Part shown: positions 1,214-61,094 of the stretch, one piece after another
Numbering within the stretch: position 1 is the first letter of the stretch
Layout: each line of letters starts with the position of its first letter
Assembly (NCBI GenBank): GCA_017397935.1
Contig: JAFQHN010000018.1
Location: forward strand, 5,101-69,100
Source of the DNA: Bacillota bacterium
GTDB lineage: Bacteria; Bacillota; Dehalobacteriia; UBA4068; UBA4997
Length of the DNA stretch: 64,000 nt
Direction: 5' to 3'
Notes under the pieces: generated by a model
Databases searched by the model: none
What the model was told of the DNA's origin: nothing
What the model saw: only the letters and a program-made list of their open reading frames with translations
Position numbers and translations under genes: made by a program

Positions 1214-1990
1214 TTAATTGTCAACCAAAGCACCATGCTCGCGTAAACCATTCAAATCTCCCCATTGATACATCACAATGGCAAGGGTGGCAATCGCGGC
1301 TGTTTCCGTCCGCAAAATGCGCCGTCCCAGCGTCACCAAATCCGCACCGGCAGCAGCCGCCATCTCAGCCTCAGCAGGCGTCAGACCACCCTCCGGCCCG
1401 ATGATAACCGCCGCACATCTGGGCACATCCGCCCTGCTAAGTGCCGTTTTCAGCGCCATACCCACGCCCTCGCCGTCGGCCTCCTCCCACGGCATCAACA
1501 CATGGCAATCCTCCGGCAGCGCAGACAGGGCCTGCCGCAAATTCTGCACCGGCGCAATCTCCACCAAGCGGGTGCGGCCGCATTGTTTGGCCGCCGAATC
1601 GGCAATTTTCTGCCAGCGCTCCTGTTTGGCGGCAGCTTTCCTGGCATCCAGCCGCACCACACTGCGCTCACAGGCAACGGGTATGATTTGGGAAACGCCC
1701 AGCTCAACGGCCTTTTGGATAACGATTTCCATGCGTTCTCCCTTAGCCAGACCTTGCAGCAAAATCAACTCCAACGGGGCCTCGGTATAGGCGGCCAGCT
1801 CATCATTCAGGCGCACACGCACCACATCACCCACCGTCAGCAGCTCGGCTGCAAAAACCCGGTTGGCACTTACCACAGTAATCTCATCACCCGGCACGCG
1901 CCGCAGCACCCGGCTTAAATGCCTGCTGTCACCGGCCGAGAGTTCAACTTCATCGCCCACCTCTGCCGCTTCTTCCAGAAAAAATCGCAT
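1214..1990 (-). CDS. rsmE: 16S rRNA (uracil1498-N3)-methyltransferase RsmE
   Basis: Translation MRFFLEEAAEVGDEV...LAKGERMEIVIQKAVELGV...IIGPEGGLT is the typical RsmE fold signature. Start moved to the internal ATG with a GGGAGG Shine-Dalgarno sequence. rsmE-mtaB adjacency is conserved in Firmicutes. Confidence 0.85.
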   Translation of the reverse strand: MRFFLEEAAEVGDEVELSAGDSRHLSRVLRRVPGDEITVVSANRVFAAELLTVGDVVRVRLNDELAAYTEAPLELILLQGLAKGERMEIVIQKAVELGVSQIIPVACERSVVRLDARKAAAKQERWQKIADSAAKQCGRTRLVEIAPVQNLRQALSALPEDCHVLMPWEEADGEGVGMALKTALSRADVPRCAAVIIGPEGGLTPAEAEMAAAAGADLVTLGRRILRTETAAIATLAIVMYQWGDLNGLREHGALVDN

Positions 1991-2417
1991 TTTGCCGCCT
2001 CCCATATCATCAAATTATCTGCTTAATTATTTTATTTTAACATGATTTGCCCCATGTGACAAGCCATTATCTGCACCAAACCAACCTGCATACAGACGCA
2101 ACAAGAGCTATCCTTGCGGATAGCTCTTGTTGCTGTGATAGTGTATAGTTGTGTGAGCTTTTCGATAATCAATATCCCCCAAAAGGGATGGCACCGAGAA
2201 TGGCTAAATTCACCACTTTTTAATCTGCGCATGGTTATTATAAACCTTTTTTCCACATTTAGCAAGACTTTTTTGCGGAAAATTACAGATATTTTGACAT
2301 TTTTTAATATTCAGTTAATATTTCACCGCCCCAAACCGGCAAAATACAACCTATATTATCAAAAATGTCGGCAGGAGGTCACATAATCTTCGGCCAGGTG
2401 TGAGCAAAAAGCCAAAT

Positions 2418-3104
2418 TTACTGCTCTTTCTGCTTGGCAGATGCAGCGGAATCAGCTTTCTTTTTCTTCTGCCCTTTATAGCTTATGTGCTGAGGCGCCG
2501 GTTTGCGACTCTTATTTTCAGCTTTTTTCTGCTTGCGGGTAGGGCCGTCAGACACAGTTTTAATACGCGCTTCCGGCTCATCATGCAGCATAAACTTCCA
2601 GTTGCGGCCCACGATAAGCAGACCCTGGAATGCCAGATACAGCGAAAGGATGATAGCGGATTTCTCCCACCAGCCTTCCAGAAAATCCAGATAACCGTAC
2701 AGACCGGCCAACCATGCCGAAATACCGATCACAGCGGCTATCGTACCGATGATAACACGCTTTTTGGCCACGGCTCTGGGCTTCCAATAAAGCTCACCGG
2801 TGATGATCTTCTGGTAAGTTGCCCGGATAAACAAACCCAAAACCAGCCATACGCAAATCATCAGCAGCAGCAGACAAACCTTCCACAGGCTGTGATTTTC
2901 AAAATCCTGCGCCACAAAATCAGGGTACAAGCCGGGCACCGCAAAAGTAGCCGGCACCAGCACCAGATAAGCCAGATAGGCAAATGCCGTCGGCCAATAT
3001 TCTTTGTCATAGCGGAAAAGGCCTATCAAGCTTTTGACGCCGACAATAAGGCTATAAGCCAATACCGCACCTACACCAAAAATAATTGCTTCCAAAAATA
3101 ACAC
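2418..3104 (-). CDS. hypothetical polytopic membrane protein with lysine-rich C-terminal tail
   Basis: Translation shows about 6 hydrophobic helices and a C-terminus KQKKAENKSRKPAPQHISYKGQKKKKADSAASAKQKEQ. AT-rich flanks on both sides. No family recognised. Confidence 0.5.
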   Translation of the reverse strand: MLFLEAIIFGVGAVLAYSLIVGVKSLIGLFRYDKEYWPTAFAYLAYLVLVPATFAVPGLYPDFVAQDFENHSLWKVCLLLLMICVWLVLGLFIRATYQKIITGELYWKPRAVAKKRVIIGTIAAVIGISAWLAGLYGYLDFLEGWWEKSAIILSLYLAFQGLLIVGRNWKFMLHDEPEARIKTVSDGPTRKQKKAENKSRKPAPQHISYKGQKKKKADSAASAKQKEQ

Positions 3105-3392
3105 CTCAACTAATTATAATTTTGCATAAACTTTACCTTAAAATAAGGGCAGTTTATATATATTCTTGAAGAAAGCGTTTTTTCCTCTAAATTTTTTCTA
3201 CAAAAAACCCTGTTTTAGCAAATAATTTGCTTTTTTCTTATTTTTTTTCATTTTTATTCGCGGCAACCTGTGCTATAATATATATGGTAAAAAAACCGTT
3301 TACTGTAATTTATAATCAGTTTAACCGATTATTGTAAACTGATATTTAAGTTTATGACTAAAAACGCTTGGCACAGGAAAAGAGGCTTTAAT

Positions 3393-4244
3393 ATGATAAA
3401 AATTATCACCGACAGCTGTTCTGATTTATCGCCGGAGATTTTGGCCACCCACAATATTGGAGTGGTGCCGCTGCATTTGCAGGTGGATGAGCAGAATTTT
3501 ACCCCCGGCATTGATATTTCCTATGAGGACGCACTCTGCAAAATTGCGGCCGCCAATGATATGCCCAAAACCTCGCAGCCTACGCCGCTGGCATACCGGC
3601 AGGCTTTTGATGACACCGATGCCGATGAAATTCTCTGCCTGACGCTGTCCTCGCAGCTTTCCGGCAGCTATAACTCGGCTAATCTGGCCGCACAGGACAG
3701 CAATAAAAATATTTTGGTGCATGATACGCTGCAAGGCTCCTTGGGGCAGGGGTTTCAGGTTCTGCTGGCAGCGCTGCTGGCCGAGAAAAACCGCACGCTG
3801 GCCGAAATCAAGCAGGCGCTGACCGAATATTACCAGAAAACTGCCATTGTGGTTATTTTGGAGAAGTATGACAACGCCATCAAGGGTGGCCGCATGAACA
3901 AATACGCCGGCAAAATCATTGAGAAGCTGAACATTCGCGGCATTATCGAGGTTATCGGCGGCAAAGTTATGGTGGTGGATAAGGCACGCGGTGCCGAAAA
4001 AACCTTCCACAAGATGATGGAGAGAATTTCCGGCAAGGCCGAGGATTTCTCCAAGGCGGTGGTGGGTATTGCCGATTTCCAAAACCCACAGCTGGCCGAT
4101 AAATACCACAGCGCGGTGGATAAGCTGCTGCATCCCGCCCAAATTTACCGGGCCTCCATCAACCCCACGCTGGGTGTTTACTGCGATAAGGGCGGCATTG
4201 TCATCAGCATCAGCCCCGACCCGATTGCTTTTGCCGAGAAATAA
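3393..4244 (+). CDS. DegV family fatty-acid-binding protein
   Basis: Translation MIKIITDSCSDLSPEIL..GVVPLHLQVDE... is the DegV/EDD-fold signature. Start taken at the internal ATG with an AAAGAGG Shine-Dalgarno sequence. Confidence 0.85.
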   Translation: MIKIITDSCSDLSPEILATHNIGVVPLHLQVDEQNFTPGIDISYEDALCKIAAANDMPKTSQPTPLAYRQAFDDTDADEILCLTLSSQLSGSYNSANLAAQDSNKNILVHDTLQGSLGQGFQVLLAALLAEKNRTLAEIKQALTEYYQKTAIVVILEKYDNAIKGGRMNKYAGKIIEKLNIRGIIEVIGGKVMVVDKARGAEKTFHKMMERISGKAEDFSKAVVGIADFQNPQLADKYHSAVDKLLHPAQIYRASINPTLGVYCDKGGIVISISPDPIAFAEK

Positions 4245-4274
4245 TTTAATAGAAATAATATAATTATACACAAC

Positions 4275-4310
4275 AAAAAACCCACAGCCATAAACTGTGG
4301 GTTTAAATTT
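4275..4310. terminator. bidirectional rho-independent terminator between degV and rpsR
   Basis: Hairpin aaacccacag-ccataa-actgtgggttt, flanked by an A-run and a T-run. Confidence 0.7.
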
Positions 4311-4329
4311 GCTTAAATTTAGTCAGCAA

Positions 4330-4599
4330 TTATTCAGCGGTGTAAGGCAGCAGAGCTACTACACGGCTGGTTTTGATTGCCTCAGTCAGCATACGCTGAT
4401 GTTTGGCGCAGTTGCCGGATACACGACGGGGCAAAATCTTGCCGCGCTCGGTGATGTAGTTGCGCAGACGGGCAGTATCCTTGTAATCGATGAACTGAGC
4501 CTTGTCAACGCAGAAACGGCAAACGCGACGACGGCTGCGACGGGTACGGTTGCCGCCGCGGAAAGGCCGACGCTCTTCTCTTGCTTTTTCTTCAGCCAT
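4330..4599 (-). CDS. rpsR: 30S ribosomal protein S18
   Basis: Translation ...[18 protein letters not shown]...[22 protein letters not shown] is the canonical S18. Confidence 0.95.
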
Positions 4600-4654
4600 T
4601 GTATTATCCTCCTTGTAGGATCAATCCGCAGGTTATGCGGTGAAAATTTCTAAA

Positions 4655-5086
4655 TTAAAAGGGCAAATCATCGCTGGTCATCGGCATATCATCCATAGCG
4701 GAGCCGAAGCTGCCGCCAAAGGACGGAGCAGAAGCATAACCACCGCCGGCAGGCATCCCGCCACCCTCTTTGGGGGAGAGGAAACGCACCGCATCAGCGA
4801 TAACCTCGGTAACATAACGGCGCTGGCCGTCATTACCATCATAAGAGCGAATCTGCAAGCGCCCGTCAACAGCCGCCAGGCGGCCCTTGGCCAGATACTG
4901 TGCGCAGTTTTCACCCTGCTTGTTCCAGACCACGATGTTGATAAAATCGGCCTCCCGATTGCCGTCCTGGTTGGCAAAGGGGCGATCAACCGCCAGAGTG
5001 AACGAGCAAACAGCCTTGCCGTTGGGGGTAAAGCGCAGCTCAGGGTCACGGGTCAATCTACCGATCAATACAATACGGTTCAACAT
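4655..5086 (-). CDS. ssb: single-stranded DNA-binding protein
   Basis: Translation [33 protein letters not shown] (OB fold), a glycine-rich linker and an acidic DDLPF tail. Confidence 0.95.
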
Positions 5087-5102
5087 AACTCAAAATCACC
5101 TC

Positions 5103-5390
5103 TTATTCAGGCAAACGAGTAACGATGTAGCGCATTACGCTGTCAGCAATACGGAAATTGCGTTCCAGCTCCTGCGGCAGCTCAGGCTGGGCCTTGAAGG
5201 TTACCAATACATAGTAGCCTTCGCGAAGCTTCTCGATCTCGTAAGCAAGCTTTCTCTTGCCCCAGATATCGGTCTTTACAACTTCGCCGCCATTTGCCTG
5301 AATCAGTGCGTTGAATTTCTCTACTGCTGCGGTGTATGCCTCCTCGGTCATATCAGGACGCAGGATGTACAGAGCTTCATAATCGCGCAT
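5103..5390 (-). CDS. rpsF: 30S ribosomal protein S6
   Basis: Translation MRDYEALYILRPDMTEEAY.... The track start is a GTG lying inside the Shine-Dalgarno sequence. Start placed at the ATG 9 nt downstream, which has an AGGGAGG Shine-Dalgarno sequence. rpsF-ssb-rpsR operon. Confidence 0.9.
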   Translation of the reverse strand: MRDYEALYILRPDMTEEAYTAAVEKFNALIQANGGEVVKTDIWGKRKLAYEIEKLREGYYVLVTFKAQPELPQELERNFRIADSVMRYIVTRLPE

Positions 5391-55035: not shown

Positions 55036-55782
55036 TCAACGGTACACACGGCCGCCAAAAATACGGCTGCCCACACGCACCATGGTTGCCCCTTCCTCGA
55101 CGGCAACCTTATAATCATTAGACATCCCCATAGAAAGTTCCTGCAAAACAACCTGCAAATCGGCAATTTTTTCGGCTTGGCGGTTAATTTCATCACGCAG
55201 CTCACGCAGCTCGGCAAACACGGGGCGCACCTCCTCGGCCGGGGCATTGGGGGCCACCGTCATCAGTCCGTCCAGCCTGAGATGAGGCAGCCTGGCCGCC
55301 GCCTGCACAAAATCCCAGACCTCCGCCGGTGCCAAACCGAATTTACTGTCCTCGGCCGCCACATTAACCTCCAACAGGCAAGGCACAATAATGTTCTGCG
55401 CCGCCGCCCGCTTTTCAATCTCCTCGGCCAGCCGCCAGCTTTCCAGCGAGTGTATCATCTGCACCCGCCCGATTATCTGCCGCACCTTGTTGGTCTGCAA
55501 ATGACCAATCAAATGCCACTTGGCGTCAGCGGGCAGCTCCTCCTGCTTCATCAGCAGCTCCTGCACACGGTTTTCGGCCAGGCCGTCAACCCCTAAGCGC
55601 CAACAGGCCGCCACCACATCAGCCGGCACGGTTTTGCTCACCGCCAGCAGCTTAACATTGGCTGCCGCGTGTGTGCCTTCCGCTTTGGCCTTGGCAATAT
55701 CCGCCTTAACCTCAGCCAGATTTTCTGCCAGATAGGCAAATTCCGTCAACAACCTCACCCCCAGAAAGGCAAACATCATCAC
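55036..55782 (-). CDS. YggS-family pyridoxal-phosphate homeostasis protein
   Basis: Alanine-racemase-N-like fold. PLP lysine in LLAVSKTVPA. C-terminus IGHLQTNK...GMSNDY. Conserved yggS-sepF-yggT order. Confidence 0.85.
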   Translation of the reverse strand: MMMFAFLGVRLLTEFAYLAENLAEVKADIAKAKAEGTHAAANVKLLAVSKTVPADVVAACWRLGVDGLAENRVQELLMKQEELPADAKWHLIGHLQTNKVRQIIGRVQMIHSLESWRLAEEIEKRAAAQNIIVPCLLEVNVAAEDSKFGLAPAEVWDFVQAAARLPHLRLDGLMTVAPNAPAEEVRPVFAELRELRDEINRQAEKIADLQVVLQELSMGMSNDYKVAVEEGATMVRVGSRIFGGRVYR

Positions 55783-56057
55783 ACAATTATTCTATTATAC
55801 TATATTGCTATACTTTTGATATTATATTTTACCATATACAAAGCCCGTTTGCAAAGGCTTTTGCCCCACTTTTACATAAATTTATTAACACATCTCATTA
55901 ACATTTCTCAGCACTTTTGGCAAATCCTGCCAAAAACTTTCACGCCAAAATTTTGACAAAAAATTATTTATTTTGCCCAAAACTATTGACAAATACAAAA
56001 GCCCTGTACCACGGCTTGGTATTTGATAAAGTACAAAATATAGTGCGCTTTTTTTGC

Positions 56058-56086
56058 TTGACTTACCACATTTTGTATGCCATAAT
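56058..56086 (+). promoter_or_regulatory. putative sigma-A promoter of nrdD
   Basis: TTGACT, a 17-nt spacer, then CATAAT. Confidence 0.5.
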
Positions 56087-56096
56087 AATAAAGCAC

Positions 56097-56114
56097 CATA
56101 TAGAGTACTATATG
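56097..56114 (+). promoter_or_regulatory. candidate NrdR operator (inverted repeat at nrdD transcription start)
   Basis: Inverted repeat catatagAGTActatatg (7-bp arms). ATATA/TATAT half-sites resemble the NrdR-box core. nrdR is encoded 1 kb away. Confidence 0.4.
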
Positions 56115-56192
56115 TAACATACATTACAATTAACCACGCCGGCCCGTTTTGCGGCGTGATTTTATCACTCATCAGGAGGTTTTTAGCACATC

Positions 56193-58526
56193 ATGTTCAG
56201 CAACATCATCAAACGCGATGGCCGTCTGGCACCTTATGACATCAGCAAAATCGCCAACGCCATCAACAAAGCCATGGAGGCCTGCGGCCGCAGCACCGCT
56301 GCCGAGGAATGTGACCGTCTGGCACAGCTGGTAGAGCAAAAGTTAGAGGCTGTCTTTAAGAGTGAGGCCCCCGGCATTGAGGACATCCAGGATACCGTGG
56401 AAACCGTACTGATGGAAAACGGCTACGCCTTTGTGGCCCGCAAATACATCATTTACCGCACCGAGCGTACCCGCAGCCGCGAGATGAACACCCGCTTGAT
56501 GCGCATTTACGATGAATTGACCAACACCGATTCTCTGCTCTCCGACATGAAGCGTGACAATGCCAACATCGACGGCGACACCGCCATGGGCACCATGCTG
56601 AAATACGGCAGCGAGGGCGCCAAGGATTATTATGAGAAGTATGTTCTCTCCCCCGCGCAGAGCAAGGCGCACGGCGACGGCGACATTCACATCCATGACT
56701 TTGATTTTTACACTCTTACCACCACCTGCTGCCAGATCAACCTGTTAGAGCTGTTCAAGGGCGGCTTCTCCACCGGCCACGGCTTTTTAAGAGAGCCCAA
56801 CGATATTTCCAGCTATGCAGCATTGGCCTGCATCGCCATTCAGTCCAACCAGAATGATCAGCACGGCGGCCAGAGTGTTCCCAACTTTGATTTCTGCATG
56901 GCTCCCGGCGTTGCCAAAACCTTCAAAAAGCTGTATATCAGCAATTTCCACAAGGCTGCCGGCCTGCTCTGCCCCACTTATCCGCAGCAGTCGGCCGATA
57001 CCAAAGAGATTTTTACCGCCATCGAAGCGGCAGGTCACGGCACCCCCACCATCACCATGAGTAAGGATTTTACCGCCGCCCTGGATGCTGCCATGGCTGA
57101 TAAGCTGCCCGCCGAGGTTTATGCCCGCGCCAAGGATTTTGCCTATAACACCGCGCTGGCTGAGACGGACAAGCATACCTTCCAGGCCATGGAGGCGCTG
57201 GTACATAACCTGAACACCATGCACAGCCGTGCCGGTGCGCAGACGCCTTTTTCGTCCATCAATTACGGCACCGATACCTCCCCCGAAGGCCGGATCGCCA
57301 TTAAAAACATTCTGCTGGCCACCGAGGCCGGCCTGGGCCAGGGTGAAACGCCCATTTTCCCCATCCACATCTTCAAGGTGAAGGAGGGCGTAAACTATAA
57401 CCCCGAGGACCCCAACTATGATTTGTTCAAGCTGGCCTGCCGCGTCAGCGCCAAGCGTCTGTTCCCCAATTTCTCGTTTATTGATGCGCCGTTTAACCTG
57501 CAATATTACAAGCCGGGCCACCCGGAGACCGAGGTTTCTTACATGGGCTGCCGCACCCGCGTTTTGGGCAATCATTATGACCCCACGCACGAGATAACTT
57601 ACGGCCGCGGCAATTTAAGCTTCACCTCCATCAACCTGCCCCGCATCGGCATCAAGGCCAACCATAATCTGGAACTGTTCTTTGATGATTTGGAGCGCAA
57701 GATGGATCTGGTGGCCAATCAGCTGCTGGACCGCTTTAAGATTCAGGCACACAAAAAAGTCCGCAACTTCCCCTTCCTGATGGGACAGGGTGTGTGGCTG
57801 GGCTCCCAAAATCTGGATATTGATGATGAGGTAGGCGAGGTTCTGAAAAACGGCACCCTCTCCATCGGCTTCATCGGTCTGGCCGAAACGCTGGTGGCAC
57901 TTACCGGTCATCATCACGGCGAAAGTCCCGAATCCCGCAACTTGGGTCTGGAAATCGTCAGCTTTATGCGTGATTACTGCGACCGCAAAAGCCGGCAGAC
58001 CGGCCTTAACTTCACCCTGCTGGCCACCCCGGCCGAGGGCTTGTCCGGTCGCTTTGTCCGCATTGATAAGAAGAAATTCGGTATCATCCCCGGCGTGACT
58101 GACCGTGAATATTACACCAACAGCTTCCACGTACCGGTTTATTACAATATCAGCGCTTATGATAAAATGCATATCGAGGCGCCCTACCATGCGCTGACCA
58201 ACGCCGGCCACATCTCTTATGTAGAGCTGGACGGCGACACCGCCAAGAATTTGGAGGCCTTTGAGAGCGTGGTGCGCTTTATGAAGGAGGTCGGCATCGG
58301 CTACGGCTCCATCAACCACCCGGTAGACCGCGACCCCGTCTGCGGTTACAGCGGCATCATCAATGAGGTTTGCCCCCGCTGCGGCCGCCGCGAAGGCGAG
58401 GGTGTCAGCGCCGAGAAGCTGCGCCTTATCAAAGCCACCAACCGCGGCAACGCCGAAACCTGCGGCTACTGCGGTGATATTTCCGAGGAGAAAGAACGCG
58501 AACAGCATCCCAACAAGCTGTGTTAA
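56193..58526 (+). CDS. nrdD: anaerobic ribonucleoside-triphosphate reductase large subunit (NrdD) lacking the glycyl-radical tail
   Basis: ATP-cone N-terminus (MFSNIIKRDGRLAPYDISKIANAI), class III RNR core, C-terminal zinc ribbon CPRCG...CGYCG. The ORF stops 47 nt before a separate glycyl-radical mini-ORF. Confidence 0.85.
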   Translation: MFSNIIKRDGRLAPYDISKIANAINKAMEACGRSTAAEECDRLAQLVEQKLEAVFKSEAPGIEDIQDTVETVLMENGYAFVARKYIIYRTERTRSREMNTRLMRIYDELTNTDSLLSDMKRDNANIDGDTAMGTMLKYGSEGAKDYYEKYVLSPAQSKAHGDGDIHIHDFDFYTLTTTCCQINLLELFKGGFSTGHGFLREPNDISSYAALACIAIQSNQNDQHGGQSVPNFDFCMAPGVAKTFKKLYISNFHKAAGLLCPTYPQQSADTKEIFTAIEAAGHGTPTITMSKDFTAALDAAMADKLPAEVYARAKDFAYNTALAETDKHTFQAMEALVHNLNTMHSRAGAQTPFSSINYGTDTSPEGRIAIKNILLATEAGLGQGETPIFPIHIFKVKEGVNYNPEDPNYDLFKLACRVSAKRLFPNFSFIDAPFNLQYYKPGHPETEVSYMGCRTRVLGNHYDPTHEITYGRGNLSFTSINLPRIGIKANHNLELFFDDLERKMDLVANQLLDRFKIQAHKKVRNFPFLMGQGVWLGSQNLDIDDEVGEVLKNGTLSIGFIGLAETLVALTGHHHGESPESRNLGLEIVSFMRDYCDRKSRQTGLNFTLLATPAEGLSGRFVRIDKKKFGIIPGVTDREYYTNSFHVPVYYNISAYDKMHIEAPYHALTNAGHISYVELDGDTAKNLEAFESVVRFMKEVGIGYGSINHPVDRDPVCGYSGIINEVCPRCGRREGEGVSAEKLRLIKATNRGNAETCGYCGDISEEKEREQHPNKLC

Positions 58527-58571
58527 TATCAACCCCGTACATTATCAGCATTAAAAAGGAGATTGATAATC

Positions 58572-58739
58572 ATGACTACCGAAAAAGATAAGAAAACTCA
58601 GGCTGCCGAAGTTTTGGTCGGCGAGGGTGTGGGCTTTGAGAGAATCCGCCGCATCACCGGCTATCTCGTAGGCACTCTGGACCGTTTTAATGACGCCAAG
58701 CGTGCCGAAGAACAGGACCGTGTAAAGCATGGCCTGTAA
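58572..58739 (+). CDS. stand-alone NrdD glycyl-radical domain mini-protein (55 aa)
   Basis: Not in the ORF track (under 60 aa). Translation MTTEKDKKTQAAEVLVGEGVGFERIRRITGYLVGTLDRFNDAKRAEEQDRVKHGL. It matches the NrdD C-terminal glycyl-radical signature R(V/I)xGYL...xNxxKxxExxxRVKH. Own Shine-Dalgarno sequence AAAAAGGAG 8 nt upstream. Its stop overlaps the nrdG ATG (ATGGCCTGTAA). Confidence 0.65.
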   Translation: MTTEKDKKTQAAEVLVGEGVGFERIRRITGYLVGTLDRFNDAKRAEEQDRVKHGL

Positions 58740-59250
58740 TCCCCCCATTATGCTGGCCGGCATCGTCAACGATTCCATCACCGACGGGCCGGGTATCCGC
58801 CTTACGCTGTTTACGCAGGGCTGCCCGCACCATTGTCCCGGCTGCCACAATCCGCAGACCTGGGCTTTTGAGGGCGGCACAGCCGTCAGCGTTGATGAGA
58901 TTTTGCAGCAGATTCGGCGCAACCCCCTGTTAAAGGGCGTAACTTTCAGCGGCGGAGAACCCCTTGCCCAGGCCGAGGCGCTGCTTCCTCTGGCCGGGCA
59001 GATCCGTCAGCTTGGCTTAGAGCTGGCCATCTACACCGGCTACACCTTTGAGCAGCTTCTGGATGAGCAAAATCCGGCAGTAATGCAGCTGCTCTCGCTG
59101 GCCGATACCCTGATTGACGGGCCGTTTATCCTGGCTCAGCGCAATTTAGAGCTTAACTTCCGCGGCTCAGCCAACCAACGCATCATCAACCTGCCCAAAT
59201 CTCTGGCCGCAGGTCAGGCGGTTATCGAAACCAACGAGCGCTGGTATTAA
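58729..59250 (+). CDS. nrdG: anaerobic ribonucleoside-triphosphate reductase activating protein (radical SAM)
   Basis: Translation MACNPP...GCPHHCPGCHNP (CxxxCxxC variant), GVTFSGGEP. Confidence 0.9.
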   Translation: MACNPPIMLAGIVNDSITDGPGIRLTLFTQGCPHHCPGCHNPQTWAFEGGTAVSVDEILQQIRRNPLLKGVTFSGGEPLAQAEALLPLAGQIRQLGLELAIYTGYTFEQLLDEQNPAVMQLLSLADTLIDGPFILAQRNLELNFRGSANQRIINLPKSLAAGQAVIETNERWY

Positions 59251-59323
59251 AAACATAAGCTATTAAAAAAGTCATTCTCCGTTTGTGTTGAGAATGACTT
59301 TTTTGCTGTCTTAATAAAATTTT

Positions 59324-59782
59324 TTACTGCTTTTCCGAGAGCATATTGTGGATTTCCTTCATAAAGGTTTCAATATCCTCAAATTTACGGTAAACCGAGG
59401 CAAACCGCACATAGGCCACATCGTCCAGCTGCCGCAGGCGCACCATCACCATGTCGCCGATCTGCTTGGCCGAAATTTCCTTCTCCATCGAGTTCCGCAG
59501 CTCTTTCTCAATATCGTTAACCATGTCGTCCAGCACACTCACCGCCACGGGGCGTTTATCACAGGCGCGCACCAGCCCGGCCAAAATCTTGTTCTTATCA
59601 AAAATCTCACGGCTGCCGTCACGCTTCACCACCAACAGGCTTACTTCCTCCACCCGTTCGTATGTCGTAAACCGCTTGCCGCACTTCTGGCACTCACGCC
59701 GACGGCGGATGCTTCGTCCATCCTCCACCTGCCGAGAATCCAGCACCTTAGAATCCTCAAAACCGCAAAATGAACAGCGCAT
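59324..59782 (-). CDS. nrdR: transcriptional repressor NrdR
   Basis: Translation MRCSFCGFEDSKVLDSRQVEDGRSIRRRRECQKCGKRFTTYERVE (zinc ribbon) and an ATP-cone. Start at M37 of the track ORF, using an AAGGAGG Shine-Dalgarno sequence. Confidence 0.9.
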   Translation of the reverse strand: MRCSFCGFEDSKVLDSRQVEDGRSIRRRRECQKCGKRFTTYERVEEVSLLVVKRDGSREIFDKNKILAGLVRACDKRPVAVSVLDDMVNDIEKELRNSMEKEISAKQIGDMVMVRLRQLDDVAYVRFASVYRKFEDIETFMKEIHNMLSEKQ

Positions 59783-59918
59783 GGTCCATTCCTCCTTAAA
59801 AACTCTGCCGCGGCAGAATTGTCTGCAATTATTTGAGGATATTATTCGACGCCAAACGCACAATTCCTGCCTGAACTTTGCCTTCTTCACTCACCCTCGC
59901 CGCCACAACTCATCATCT

Positions 59919-60200
59919 TCACTCATCATCCTCAATAGATAAGCCACGACGCTTAACACCCTGCACCTGGGCCGCATACTCCACCAGCACCACATCACGG
60001 CCAATCTTCTTAATCTGCGTCCACGGTATAATTATGTCCTCTCCGCGCGTAAAAACGCCCAGAAACCGGCTGCTGCCCGGCAAAATCAGCGCCACCATGC
60101 GCCCGGCCCCCAGGTCCACCTCCACATCACGCACCGGCCCCAGCCGCCGCCCGTCCGCCAGGCTGATAATATCCTTGTTGCGCAAGTCCGAAATCTTAAA
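59919..60200 (-). CDS. YlmC/YmxH-family PRC-barrel sporulation protein
   Basis: Translation [41 protein letters not shown] is the YlmC signature. Confidence 0.75.
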
Positions 60201-60279
60201 CATCAACACCACCTCAAACCAAAATATGCGGACAATCATCCCAAAATGACTGTCCGCCCATTTTATCTTCGCCCCATAT

Positions 60280-60972
60280 TTACAGTTGATTAAAAATCTC
60301 GCACATTTTCAGGCGCACCACCCGGTCGCCATAGATAAGCGACTCATCAGCGGCCTGTTCTCCTGCGCTCACCTCGCCGCACTCATCCACAAAACACAGC
60401 GGCGGAAACAGCACACACCACCAGTTATGCCCCTCGGCCGCCCCCAAATTCAGCCGCAGCGCCCGATACTTCCCCGCCGGCAGCATAACGCGCCCGTACC
60501 GTTTGGGCGGGAAATCAAACTCGCCCACCTCGCCCACGGCCGCATAACCAAAATCTCCGCAGATACCGTTCGCCAGCATCTCCAACTGCGGCAGCTCGCC
60601 CAGCACAATCTGCTCGGCCTGCTCACGGGTTTCGGCCTCGGCCAGCAGCGGCGTCAGATATTCCACCACCGCGTCACGCACTTGCAGCTTTATTGTCTGG
60701 TCGTGTGCGCTGTCGCTGTTGGCCACGATATGCAGGCGAAAGGGCAGGCCCGCATCAACTGCCCCCGCCAAATCGGGCTGTGCCCCCAGCACCCCCAGCA
60801 GCAGGCCCATCAACAGCAGCGGCAGCAGTGCCAACCCCAGTTTATACGCACTTTCAGGCGTCTCCGGCGGCATCTGGCGCGCTTTTCGATAATCACACGG
60901 CAGCCCCGGCAAAACCTCCTGCTCGGGGTATTTTTCAGGCTTATCATAATCAATATCGGCAAATTCTTTCAT
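60280..60972 (-). CDS. spoIIR: stage II sporulation protein R
   Basis: Translation ...[23 protein letters not shown]...[12 protein letters not shown] are conserved SpoIIR motifs. N-terminal TM/signal segment. Confidence 0.8.
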
Positions 60973-61094
60973 GGCATAATCTCCTTTTCAACCACAATCA
61001 CAACCACAATTATGTTTACTGCCGTTATGCCACGCCGCACCCGGTTTTATACCCCCAGCCGCCAATTTTTTCACATATTTATTTGCTCATATTT

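Follow-up and report, generated by a model that had tools for sequence, protein, structure and literature searches.

A probable two-piece class III ribonucleotide reductase with its glycyl-radical loop encoded by a separate 55-codon gene

In a 64,000-nucleotide (nt) stretch of DNA from a Bacillota bacterium (contig JAFQHN010000018.1; this whole stretch is called the window, and positions are counted from its first letter), three closely packed open reading frames (ORFs) occupy the plus strand from 56193 to 59250. They encode the core of NrdD, the catalytic protein of class III (anaerobic) ribonucleotide reductase (RNR), a mini-protein of 55 amino acids (aa) and the activase NrdG. The glycyl-radical loop (R-x-x-G-Y ... 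R-V-x-H) is absent from the core and sits on the separate 55-aa ORF. A first-pass annotation, made from the letters of the window only, had proposed that nrdD core, glycyl-radical gene and nrdG form a genuine unit and not a frameshift artefact. This proposal was borne out: dozens of species in several phyla share the arrangement, with varied spacers and frames, ribosome-binding sites of its own and signs of selection, and the two-gene arrangement is thereby confirmed as real and conserved across lineages. As judged by sequence comparison, the locus probably encodes a naturally split class III RNR, consisting of a core and a separate radical-bearing protein. The features on which this reading depends are as follows.

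56193-58526, plus strand: nrdD core, 777 aa, ending in TAA (58524-58526), identified with Pfam and NCBIfam profiles
58326-58385, plus strand: zinc-ribbon segment DRD714PVC717GYSGIINEVC727PRC730G of the core, from alignment to CLDCGY...CPKCG of Prevotella copri
58395-58523, plus strand: core tail, aa 735-777 (GEGVSAEKLRLIKATNRGNAETCGYCGDISEEKEREQHPNKLC, 43 residues), specific to one sub-lineage and absent in one-piece enzymes
58527-58571, plus strand: intercistronic spacer of 45 nt, read from the sequence
58555-58561, plus strand: Shine-Dalgarno sequence AAAGGAG, 10 nt ahead of the mini-gene ATG
58572-58739, plus strand: glycyl-radical mini-gene, 55 aa plus stop (ATG at 58572, stop at 58737-58739)
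58729-59250, plus strand: nrdG activase, a radical S-adenosylmethionine (SAM) protein of 173 aa (TIGR02491, E = 1.4e-42)

The mini-gene had initially been placed at 58573, behind a spacer of 47 nt; both values are corrected above. The strong Shine-Dalgarno sequence noted ahead of it is indeed present, and its stop codon lies inside nrdG, as had been described, with an overlap of 11 nt between the two genes. NrdG scored 145 bits against a TIGR02491 cut-off of 126. Besides the mini-ORF, no R-x-x-G-Y motif of the glycyl-radical kind was found in the 64-kb window.

The core covers positions 1-531 of the 562 positions of Pfam NRDD (PF13597; E = 1.3e-189) and scored 1098 bits with NCBIfam NF005497, for which the cut-off is 764. 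It carries an N-terminal ATP-cone (aa 4-93), the NxN flap (N123/N125), the beta-A cysteine Cys179, the thiyl-radical loop YMGC453R and the segment ATPAE615G, and N123/N125, C179, C453 and E615 did not vary among 46 aligned relatives, split as well as one-piece. C453 and C179 align with Cys416 and Cys171 of P. copri NrdD, which are the radical cysteines in the cryo-electron microscopy study of that enzyme (PMC11226230), and E615 aligns with Glu581. Of the features that define class III RNR, the NRDD barrel, the radical cysteines and the nrdG gene alongside were found, and a radical loop on the catalytic chain was absent. The match of the core to phage T4 NrdD (1h78) ends at residue 566 of 605, hence ahead of Gly580, which we take to be the radical glycine of the T4 enzyme. 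The first-pass annotation was therefore right in stating that the 777-aa ORF lacks a glycyl-radical tail.

The product of the mini-ORF begins MTTEKDKK...RRITGYLVGTLDRFNDAKRAEEQDRVKHGL and consists of a variable leader (aa 1-16) and a conserved block, G17-H53 (RRITG30Y...RVKH), in which the predicted radical glycine, G30, is encoded by codon 58659-58661. It matched Pfam NRDD positions 533-562 (31.5 bits; cut-off, 26.2), the last ~34 positions of two NCBIfam NrdD models and residues 707-738 of the P. copri NrdD chain 8p23_A (E = 9e-6, with RITGYLVGT identical), in agreement with the claim that it carries the NrdD glycyl-radical signature. Core and mini-protein are complementary parts of the NRDD domain, and the NCBIfam and Protein Data Bank (PDB) comparisons agree on this. 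G30, Y31 and R38 of the mini-protein align with Gly711, Tyr712 and Arg719 of P. copri NrdD, of which Gly711 is the radical glycine, the adjoining Tyr712 bonds Glu581 and Arg719 bonds the flap (PMC11226230). Across the family, neither G30 nor Y31 varies, and 152 of 153 sequences have Arg or Lys at the position of R38. By these alignments, the mini-protein retains the residues for radical holding and flap contact, and the core has kept those of their partner residues that we checked. The mini-protein gave no match to Pfam Gly_radical at E <= 1, as only NRDD profiles matched, and no family dedicated to it was found in Pfam, NCBIfam or PHROGs.

A protein search with the 55-aa query returned 7993 matches, and the best 120 were all 47 to 76 aa long. 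In these homologues the N-terminal 10 to 25 residues are variable and the block (V/I)GEGVGFERIRRITGYLVGTLDRFN(D/N)AKRAEExDRVKH is near constant. Among 50%-identity cluster representatives we obtained 2053 matches at E <= 1e-3 and 733 at E <= 1e-10, the best 150 of which were all 54 to 196 aa long. Some free-standing homologues (P0298, P0357, P0382, P0258 and P0283) reach 120 to 196 aa through extra N- or C-terminal sequence; one of the longer homologues has a transmembrane-like start and one an acetyltransferase-like N terminus. These longer forms may be mis-called starts or genuine fusions. The identical mini-protein was present on 11 contigs, and the same protein is annotated as 'hypothetical protein IJE29_03000' in an NCBI metagenome-assembled genome. 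The expectation that default annotation would miss the mini-ORF was thus mistaken, since gene callers do find the protein; it is the functional annotation that is absent.

As the first-pass annotation had suggested, we searched related genomes for the same split, and found it. A scan of species-representative genomes gave at least 553 confirmed stretches, and the best 80 were analysed as loci: about 73 of these were split and six or seven were one-piece. Statistics for the split form rest on 66 non-redundant loci. Relative to the core, the mini-gene was in frame 0, 1 or 2 in 23, 24 and 19 of them, respectively, and a Shine-Dalgarno-like site with an ATG preceded the mini-gene in 65. The distance from the core stop to the RRITGY codons ranged from 59 to 440 nt among split loci. 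An in-frame arrangement without a further stop was seen in the window and 13 other loci. Two loci labelled Candidatus Avidehalobacter gallistercoris (L003/L004) closely resemble the window, with a core of 777 aa, a spacer of 104 nt, a mini-gene overlapping nrdG and nrdR downstream. The spacers of L005 and L001 measure 32 nt and 365 nt, and those of L001, L003 and L005 all shift the frame, with stop codons in the frame of the core. Counting fused loci too, 69 of the 86 loci taken from the genome and assembly collections have an adjacent nrdG. A surE gene (5'/3'-nucleotidase) lies between mini-gene and nrdG in L001 (4180-4929) and also in L026, L061 and L076, which belong to an Acutalibacter-like clade; the overlap of mini-gene and nrdG seen in the window is therefore not universal.

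Over a 37-codon block, 153 distinct DNA versions of the mini-gene showed mean pairwise identities of 0.82, 0.90 and 0.38 at codon positions 1, 2 and 3. G14, Y15 and 13 other columns of this block were invariant, nine columns being fixed by the search motif. Such a pattern marks a translated sequence under strong purifying selection. By record title, its carriers include Oscillospiraceae, Lachnospiraceae, Acutalibacteraceae, Peptococcaceae, uncultured Bacilli and 'Tenericutes', and further Muribaculaceae, Desulfovibrio/Mailhella, Fibrobacter, Treponemataceae, Succinatimonas and Anaerobiospirillum. Metagenome-assembled genomes of gut, rumen or faecal origin make up most of these carriers; two isolates, Acutalibacter caecimuris M00118 and Bacterium 1XD42-1, have the mini-gene as well. 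Because the carriers span phyla while the small protein keeps ~85% identity, we infer horizontal transfer of the mini-gene.

A scan of IMG/VR with the same query gave 560 confirmed stretches, and the best 80 loci (L087-L166, with the mini-gene usually at ~4001-4170 of the locus) were taken as the phage-contig set. Short free-standing ORFs were present in 74 of these 80 loci, and in 75 tblastn (E < 1e-5) detected homologues of neither the nrdD core nor nrdG in the 4 kb to each side. Neighbours of these orphan copies included terminase large and small subunits, endolysins, a holin, a replication initiator and a Mu-type transposition protein. No conserved neighbour emerged: the largest non-self cluster, an endolysin, was found in 11 of the 75 loci. 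In L087, a 436-aa radical-SAM protein (375-1685; phrog_1802, with weak matches to Pfam Radical_SAM/Fer4_12) lies beside a lysis cassette and 2.3 kb upstream of the orphan mini-gene; by tblastn it is not NrdG-like. Orphan mini-genes were also found in eight bacterial loci (L021, L024, L029, L060, L067, L070, L074 and L084), including Desulfovibrio, Succinatimonas and Ca. Crickella. The Succinatimonas copy (L070) encodes a mini-protein identical to that on viral contigs of the group L123-L133 (e.g., L123, L124 and L128) and is for this reason probably prophage-borne. A split core with a similar mini-protein occurs in loci labelled as related taxa, Anaerobiospirillum (L034) and Desulfovibrio (L043).

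The cultured Eggerthella phage EL753P1 (L167, OP172808.1) carries at 1688-5119 a split-type nrdD core of 952 aa with a full C-x-x-C...C-x-x-C ribbon, followed by a 102-aa ORF without a Pfam match and then the mini-gene. In the deposited record this mini-gene is frameshifted exactly at RRI|TGYL and its first 42 codons alone are annotated, which could reflect a sequencing error, a pseudogene or programmed frameshifting. On phages, the orphan mini-gene looks like an unrecognised auxiliary gene, and its travelling without partners would fit a product that acts in trans on a host-encoded core.

The first-pass annotation had taken CGYCG for the second half of the zinc ribbon; this motif (757-761) lies instead in the tail, and the ribbon consists of D714/C717...C727/C730. 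The first Cys of the canonical CxxC...CxxC is thus an Asp (D714, codon 58332-58334). D714, C717, C727 and C730 were invariant in 46 fused and split relatives, so that one-piece relatives also have the Asp, and C-P-x-C is kept in a few relatives (L034 and the Eggerthella phage). Such a ribbon may be either a three-Cys-plus-Asp metal site or one that has lost its metal. Many split cores, above all those of uncultured Bacilli and Muribaculaceae, have a cysteine pair (CC, CxC or CGC) at the C terminus (L022, L027, L048, L053, L055, L069, L078 and L079, and also L017, L023, L041, L064 and L072). By analogy, these pairs recall the redox pairs of class I/II reductases, or could supply the missing zinc ligand.

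One-piece relatives read ...CP(R/K)CGR-x-E-x-EG-x-GFERIRRITGY..., and split cores read ...CPRCGR-x-EGEG(V/I)(S/P)-x-E(K/R)(L/I)-x-x-(L/I)... before they diverge into three tail types. Type A (...ELRKKYPxMPxFxG...) is the commonest, type B (...IKATNRGNAETCGYCGDxxEExER...) is that of the window and the third is short and ends in CC or CxC. In a profile comparison, type-B tails were colinear with the radical domains of one-piece relatives over 44 columns (P = 0.0026), EKLRLI pairing with ERIRRI and EExER with EErDR. Type-A tails gave no signal in the same comparison; only type B did. At the aligned radical position the window has KAT where TGY is expected, and an xGY is kept there in some tails (LNGYR in P0151, LNGYK in L016 and LKGYS in L033). 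Moreover, the conserved part of the mini-protein starts with GEGV, as does the split-core tail. The core tail 735-777 is thus probably a decayed duplicate of the glycyl-radical domain. The simplest reading of its origin would be that the 3' end of a one-piece gene was duplicated in tandem, and that the copy upstream then degenerated while the one downstream acquired a start of its own.

An 11-nt direct repeat, GGCGAGGGTGT, occurs in frame at 58395-58405 and 58620-58630, 225 nt apart, and encodes GEGV in core tail and mini-protein alike. A deletion between the two copies would, from the sequence, restore a canonical one-piece nrdD in frame. As a significant signal the repeat was rejected, since codon identity in other loci was about that expected from shared amino acids.

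The surroundings of the three genes contain further features, of which those upstream of nrdD and the hairpin are candidates.

56031-56046 and 56063-56078: two candidate NrdR boxes, GTACAAAATATAGTGC and TTACCACATTTTGTAT, 32 bp apart, 5' of nrdD
56058-56086, plus strand: promoter-like site TTGACT, 17 nt, (TG)CATAAT, a consensus match only (10/12)
59265-59304: hairpin AGTCATTCTC, 10-nt loop, GAGAATGACT, with A and T runs on its flanks, read directly from the sequence
59324-59785, minus strand: nrdR repressor gene, convergent with the operon (Zn_ribbon_NrdR, E = 2.3e-21; ATP-cone, E = 1.8e-24)

Both candidate boxes are weak, with three mismatches each to ACACNANATNTNGTGT, and the window-wide count of matches to the NrdR-box pattern was no higher than chance. 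Their tandem placement directly 5' of nrdD, with nrdR nearby, is suggestive of NrdR control. The promoter-like site overlaps the second box. The hairpin, which a scan of the sequence did not report, is likely a bidirectional terminator that would close the nrdD-mini-gene-nrdG unit. The gene order around it (55036-61000), namely a yggS-like pyridoxal phosphate protein, nrdD, the mini-gene, nrdG, nrdR, a PRC-barrel protein and spoIIR, is the same in L003/L004, so that the window probably derives from a related lineage of spore-forming Clostridia.

Could the two ORFs nevertheless form one protein? In the window, nrdD and the mini-ORF are read in one frame, with the TAA followed by 15 sense codons and no further stop. 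Taken alone, the window would thus allow one base change or stop-codon readthrough to fuse core and mini-ORF. The first-pass annotation had dismissed an artefact on account of the in-frame stop, the Shine-Dalgarno sequence and the spacer; its conclusion stands, and these reasons were insufficient, because both ORFs share a frame and only comparison with relatives decides. A sequencing error or a fresh nonsense mutation (TAA 58524-58526) in a one-piece nrdD would be undone by a single substitution. However, the fused product would have an insertion of ~80 residues between zinc ribbon and radical loop that occurs in no one-piece relative, the identical mini-protein is found on 11 contigs, and the 34 nearest homologues of the core (72-96% identity) are split, have type-B tails and end at the same place. 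Relatives also have out-of-frame spacers with multiple stops, and the mini-ORF has its own Shine-Dalgarno sequence and ATG, so that the chance of such an error is negligible. Rejoining of the pieces, by readthrough, ribosomal bypass, a self-splicing intron (as in T4 nrdD) or a split intein, is suggested by the 14 in-frame loci without a further stop, the window among them, and by the introns and inteins known from phage nrdD (PMC3653736). Against it, frames are random, most spacers contain core-frame stops, and intein halves would be longer and less variable than the tails of 18 to 51 residues and the leaders of ~10-25 residues; orphan phage copies have no core to splice to. Moreover, an Rfam scan of 55800-59400 for introns and riboswitches gave nothing relevant, with no intron or other RNA family at E <= 1. 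We regard rejoining as very improbable. Taken together, random frames, own start signals, selection, family size and the lack of an intron match make artefact, readthrough and splicing very unlikely.

Two other explanations accept the mini-protein as a separate product and give it a different role. It might be a spare part only, the core tail having a radical site of its own (TCGYCG, 756-761) and the mini-protein rescuing the enzyme after oxygen damage, as GrcA does for pyruvate formate-lyase. Indeed, the tail derives, by the comparison above, from a radical domain, xGY is kept in some relatives, and NCBIfam PRK14704 aligns with the core through model position 615 of 618. However, the aligned radical position of the window reads K-A-T and not T-G-Y, most split cores lack CGYCG or have a changed form of it (LGYHG, LGQCG and types A and C), and the core tail lacks the flanking RR-I and the LDRFN-AK segment that holds the Arg719 equivalent. 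In addition, the tails range from 18 to 51 residues while the mini-protein is near invariant. We accordingly give a mere spare part little credence. The small protein might instead be a regulator or competitor, such as a decoy substrate of NrdG, an inhibitor of the core or a means of phage shutdown of host deoxynucleoside triphosphate (dNTP) synthesis. This would accommodate the orphan phage copies without a partner gene nearby. Yet the core has no other source of a glycyl radical, so the enzyme of the operon would be dead without the mini-protein, and the invariant G, Y and R are the radical-chemistry and flap-contact residues of P. copri NrdD. Phages, moreover, usually gain from more dNTPs, not fewer. 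A regulatory role thus has a slim chance of being correct.

Several points weigh against a naturally split reductase. Low-level readthrough with some fused protein is possible in this organism. The next 86 homologues of the core (69-77% identity), including Maliibacterium massiliense and Acidaminobacterium chupaoyuni, are one-piece, and one-piece cores lie among split ones in a neighbour-joining tree of 70 sequences, which would point either to one split followed by re-fusions or transfers, or to several independent splits. The survey covered loci and their neighbourhoods, and a second one-piece nrdD elsewhere in these genomes is possible. Structure prediction gave no help: in an AlphaFold2 model of the core built on the 46-sequence alignment, the tail 739-777 had a predicted local distance difference test (pLDDT) score below 50, and in a one-piece control (P0165, same alignment) the genuine radical domain was likewise below 50. 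As the control was equally poor, the models are uninformative on docking or on a role of the tail as a 'plug'. The zinc-ribbon and ATPAEG segments scored somewhat higher in the control, a difference on which we place no weight. Finally, we infer from sequence alone that core and mini-protein associate, that the radical resides on the mini-protein, that NrdG activates it and that the assembly is catalytically competent. The same holds for the rationale of the arrangement, namely that oxygen would cost a split enzyme merely a replaceable 6-kDa part and that phages may carry the mini-gene alone to sustain host dNTP synthesis.

For the split class III RNR, which we still hold to be the probable explanation, a mechanism can be proposed. 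ATP-cone, catalytic barrel, thiyl-radical cysteine and zinc ribbon would be contributed by the core, whereas the mini-protein would bring the glycyl-radical loop with G30 and, at its C terminus, a short helix and tail. The likely activase is NrdG, whose cistron follows and overlaps the mini-gene; it would place the radical on G30 while the 6-kDa protein is free or loosely bound. The loop would then enter the core barrel beside C453, like the covalently attached domain of one-piece enzymes, and the reaction would run as it does in one-piece enzymes of the formate type (the core has the MGCR methionine). Oxygen is known to cut glycyl-radical enzymes at the radical glycine (June 2026 review), and dATP makes the whole radical domain mobile in P. 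copri NrdD (PMC11226230). It is a speculation by analogy that dATP might release the small protein in the split enzyme. More tentatively, and with some doubt on our part, the 6-kDa protein could be a consumable, exchangeable radical cofactor that is activated by NrdG, docks reversibly and is replaced after oxidation; gut phages would then recharge the host reductase, and the decayed core tail would perhaps be a displaced placeholder. A parallel to the phage mini-gene is offered by cyanophages, which carry psbA for the short-lived D1 protein of photosystem II.

In the literature searched, glycyl-radical enzymes carry the radical on the catalytic polypeptide, and the sole free-standing radical modules described there, GrcA/YfiD and T4 Y06I, serve pyruvate formate-lyase. 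No published description of a split nrdD radical domain was found, in a search that reached few subscription-journal papers, and a two-subunit class III RNR with a detached radical loop is apparently undescribed. The anaerobic enzyme for DNA precursors of many gut- and rumen-associated bacteria is here predicted to consist of two pieces, with the radical site on a 6-kDa protein. If true, this would allow radical installation, docking and exchange to be studied apart from catalysis in a system made by nature. It would also suggest a strategy by which gut anaerobes tolerate transient oxygen and reveal a widespread, unannotated phage auxiliary gene. Annotation would be corrected as well, since the cores now resemble truncated NrdD and the mini-genes carry the label 'hypothetical'.

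Other reductase genes are known in pieces. Introns or inteins can break up the coding sequence of phage nrdD (the T4 sunY group I intron, among others; PMC3653736). Unlike these, which are rejoined by RNA or protein splicing, the pieces described here have independent translation signals and random frames, with no intron match. The catalytic subunit is likewise encoded by two neighbouring ORFs in NrdJa/NrdJb (Pseudomonas aeruginosa and some phages) and in nrdA-a/-b of Aeromonas phage Aeh1. The NrdJa/NrdJb and Aeh1 NrdA pieces assemble into active enzyme. However, these splits concern class I or II enzymes and are cut elsewhere, so that the radical-storing element is not detached from the barrel. 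We know of no NrdJ- or Aeh1-type split gene that occurs as a phage orphan. The split of Aeh1 nrdA is attributed to an inserted element, an intein (PMC3653736).

GrcA/YfiD of E. coli and Y06I of phage T4 are autonomous glycyl-radical spare parts for pyruvate formate-lyase (PMC8683613, PMC13450708). The parallel with GrcA/YfiD drawn by the first-pass annotation holds as an analogy, with orphan phage copies that fit action in trans, and fails as membership. As in these proteins, a small stand-alone glycyl-radical protein with a variable, probably disordered leader would act in trans, and phage copies exist in both cases. In contrast to GrcA/YfiD, the mini-protein is homologous to the tail of NrdD and not to that of pyruvate formate-lyase (Pfam Gly_radical), and it is just 55 aa long, compared with a reported 14.3 kDa for YfiD. 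Furthermore, the partner of GrcA has its own radical glycine, which GrcA replaces once oxygen has cleaved it, whereas the adjacent core has no conserved radical motif and the mini-protein is apparently the sole site. Spare-part proteins are known solely for formate lyases (June 2026 review), and Andorfer et al. (2021) considered it possible, as an open point, that such parts also exist for other glycyl-radical enzymes.

The closest relatives are the one-piece NrdD/NrdG systems of T4, E. coli and P. copri (1h78, 8p23), with which the window shares the fold family, catalytic residues and ATP-cone, the adjacent nrdG and probably NrdR control; the zinc-ribbon segment is also there, with Asp at the first ligand position. 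The mini-protein is homologous one to one with the last ~35 residues of these NrdD proteins. Unlike in the one-piece enzymes, the radical loop is here encoded on its own polypeptide with its own ribosome-binding site, and the core ends in a non-canonical tail.

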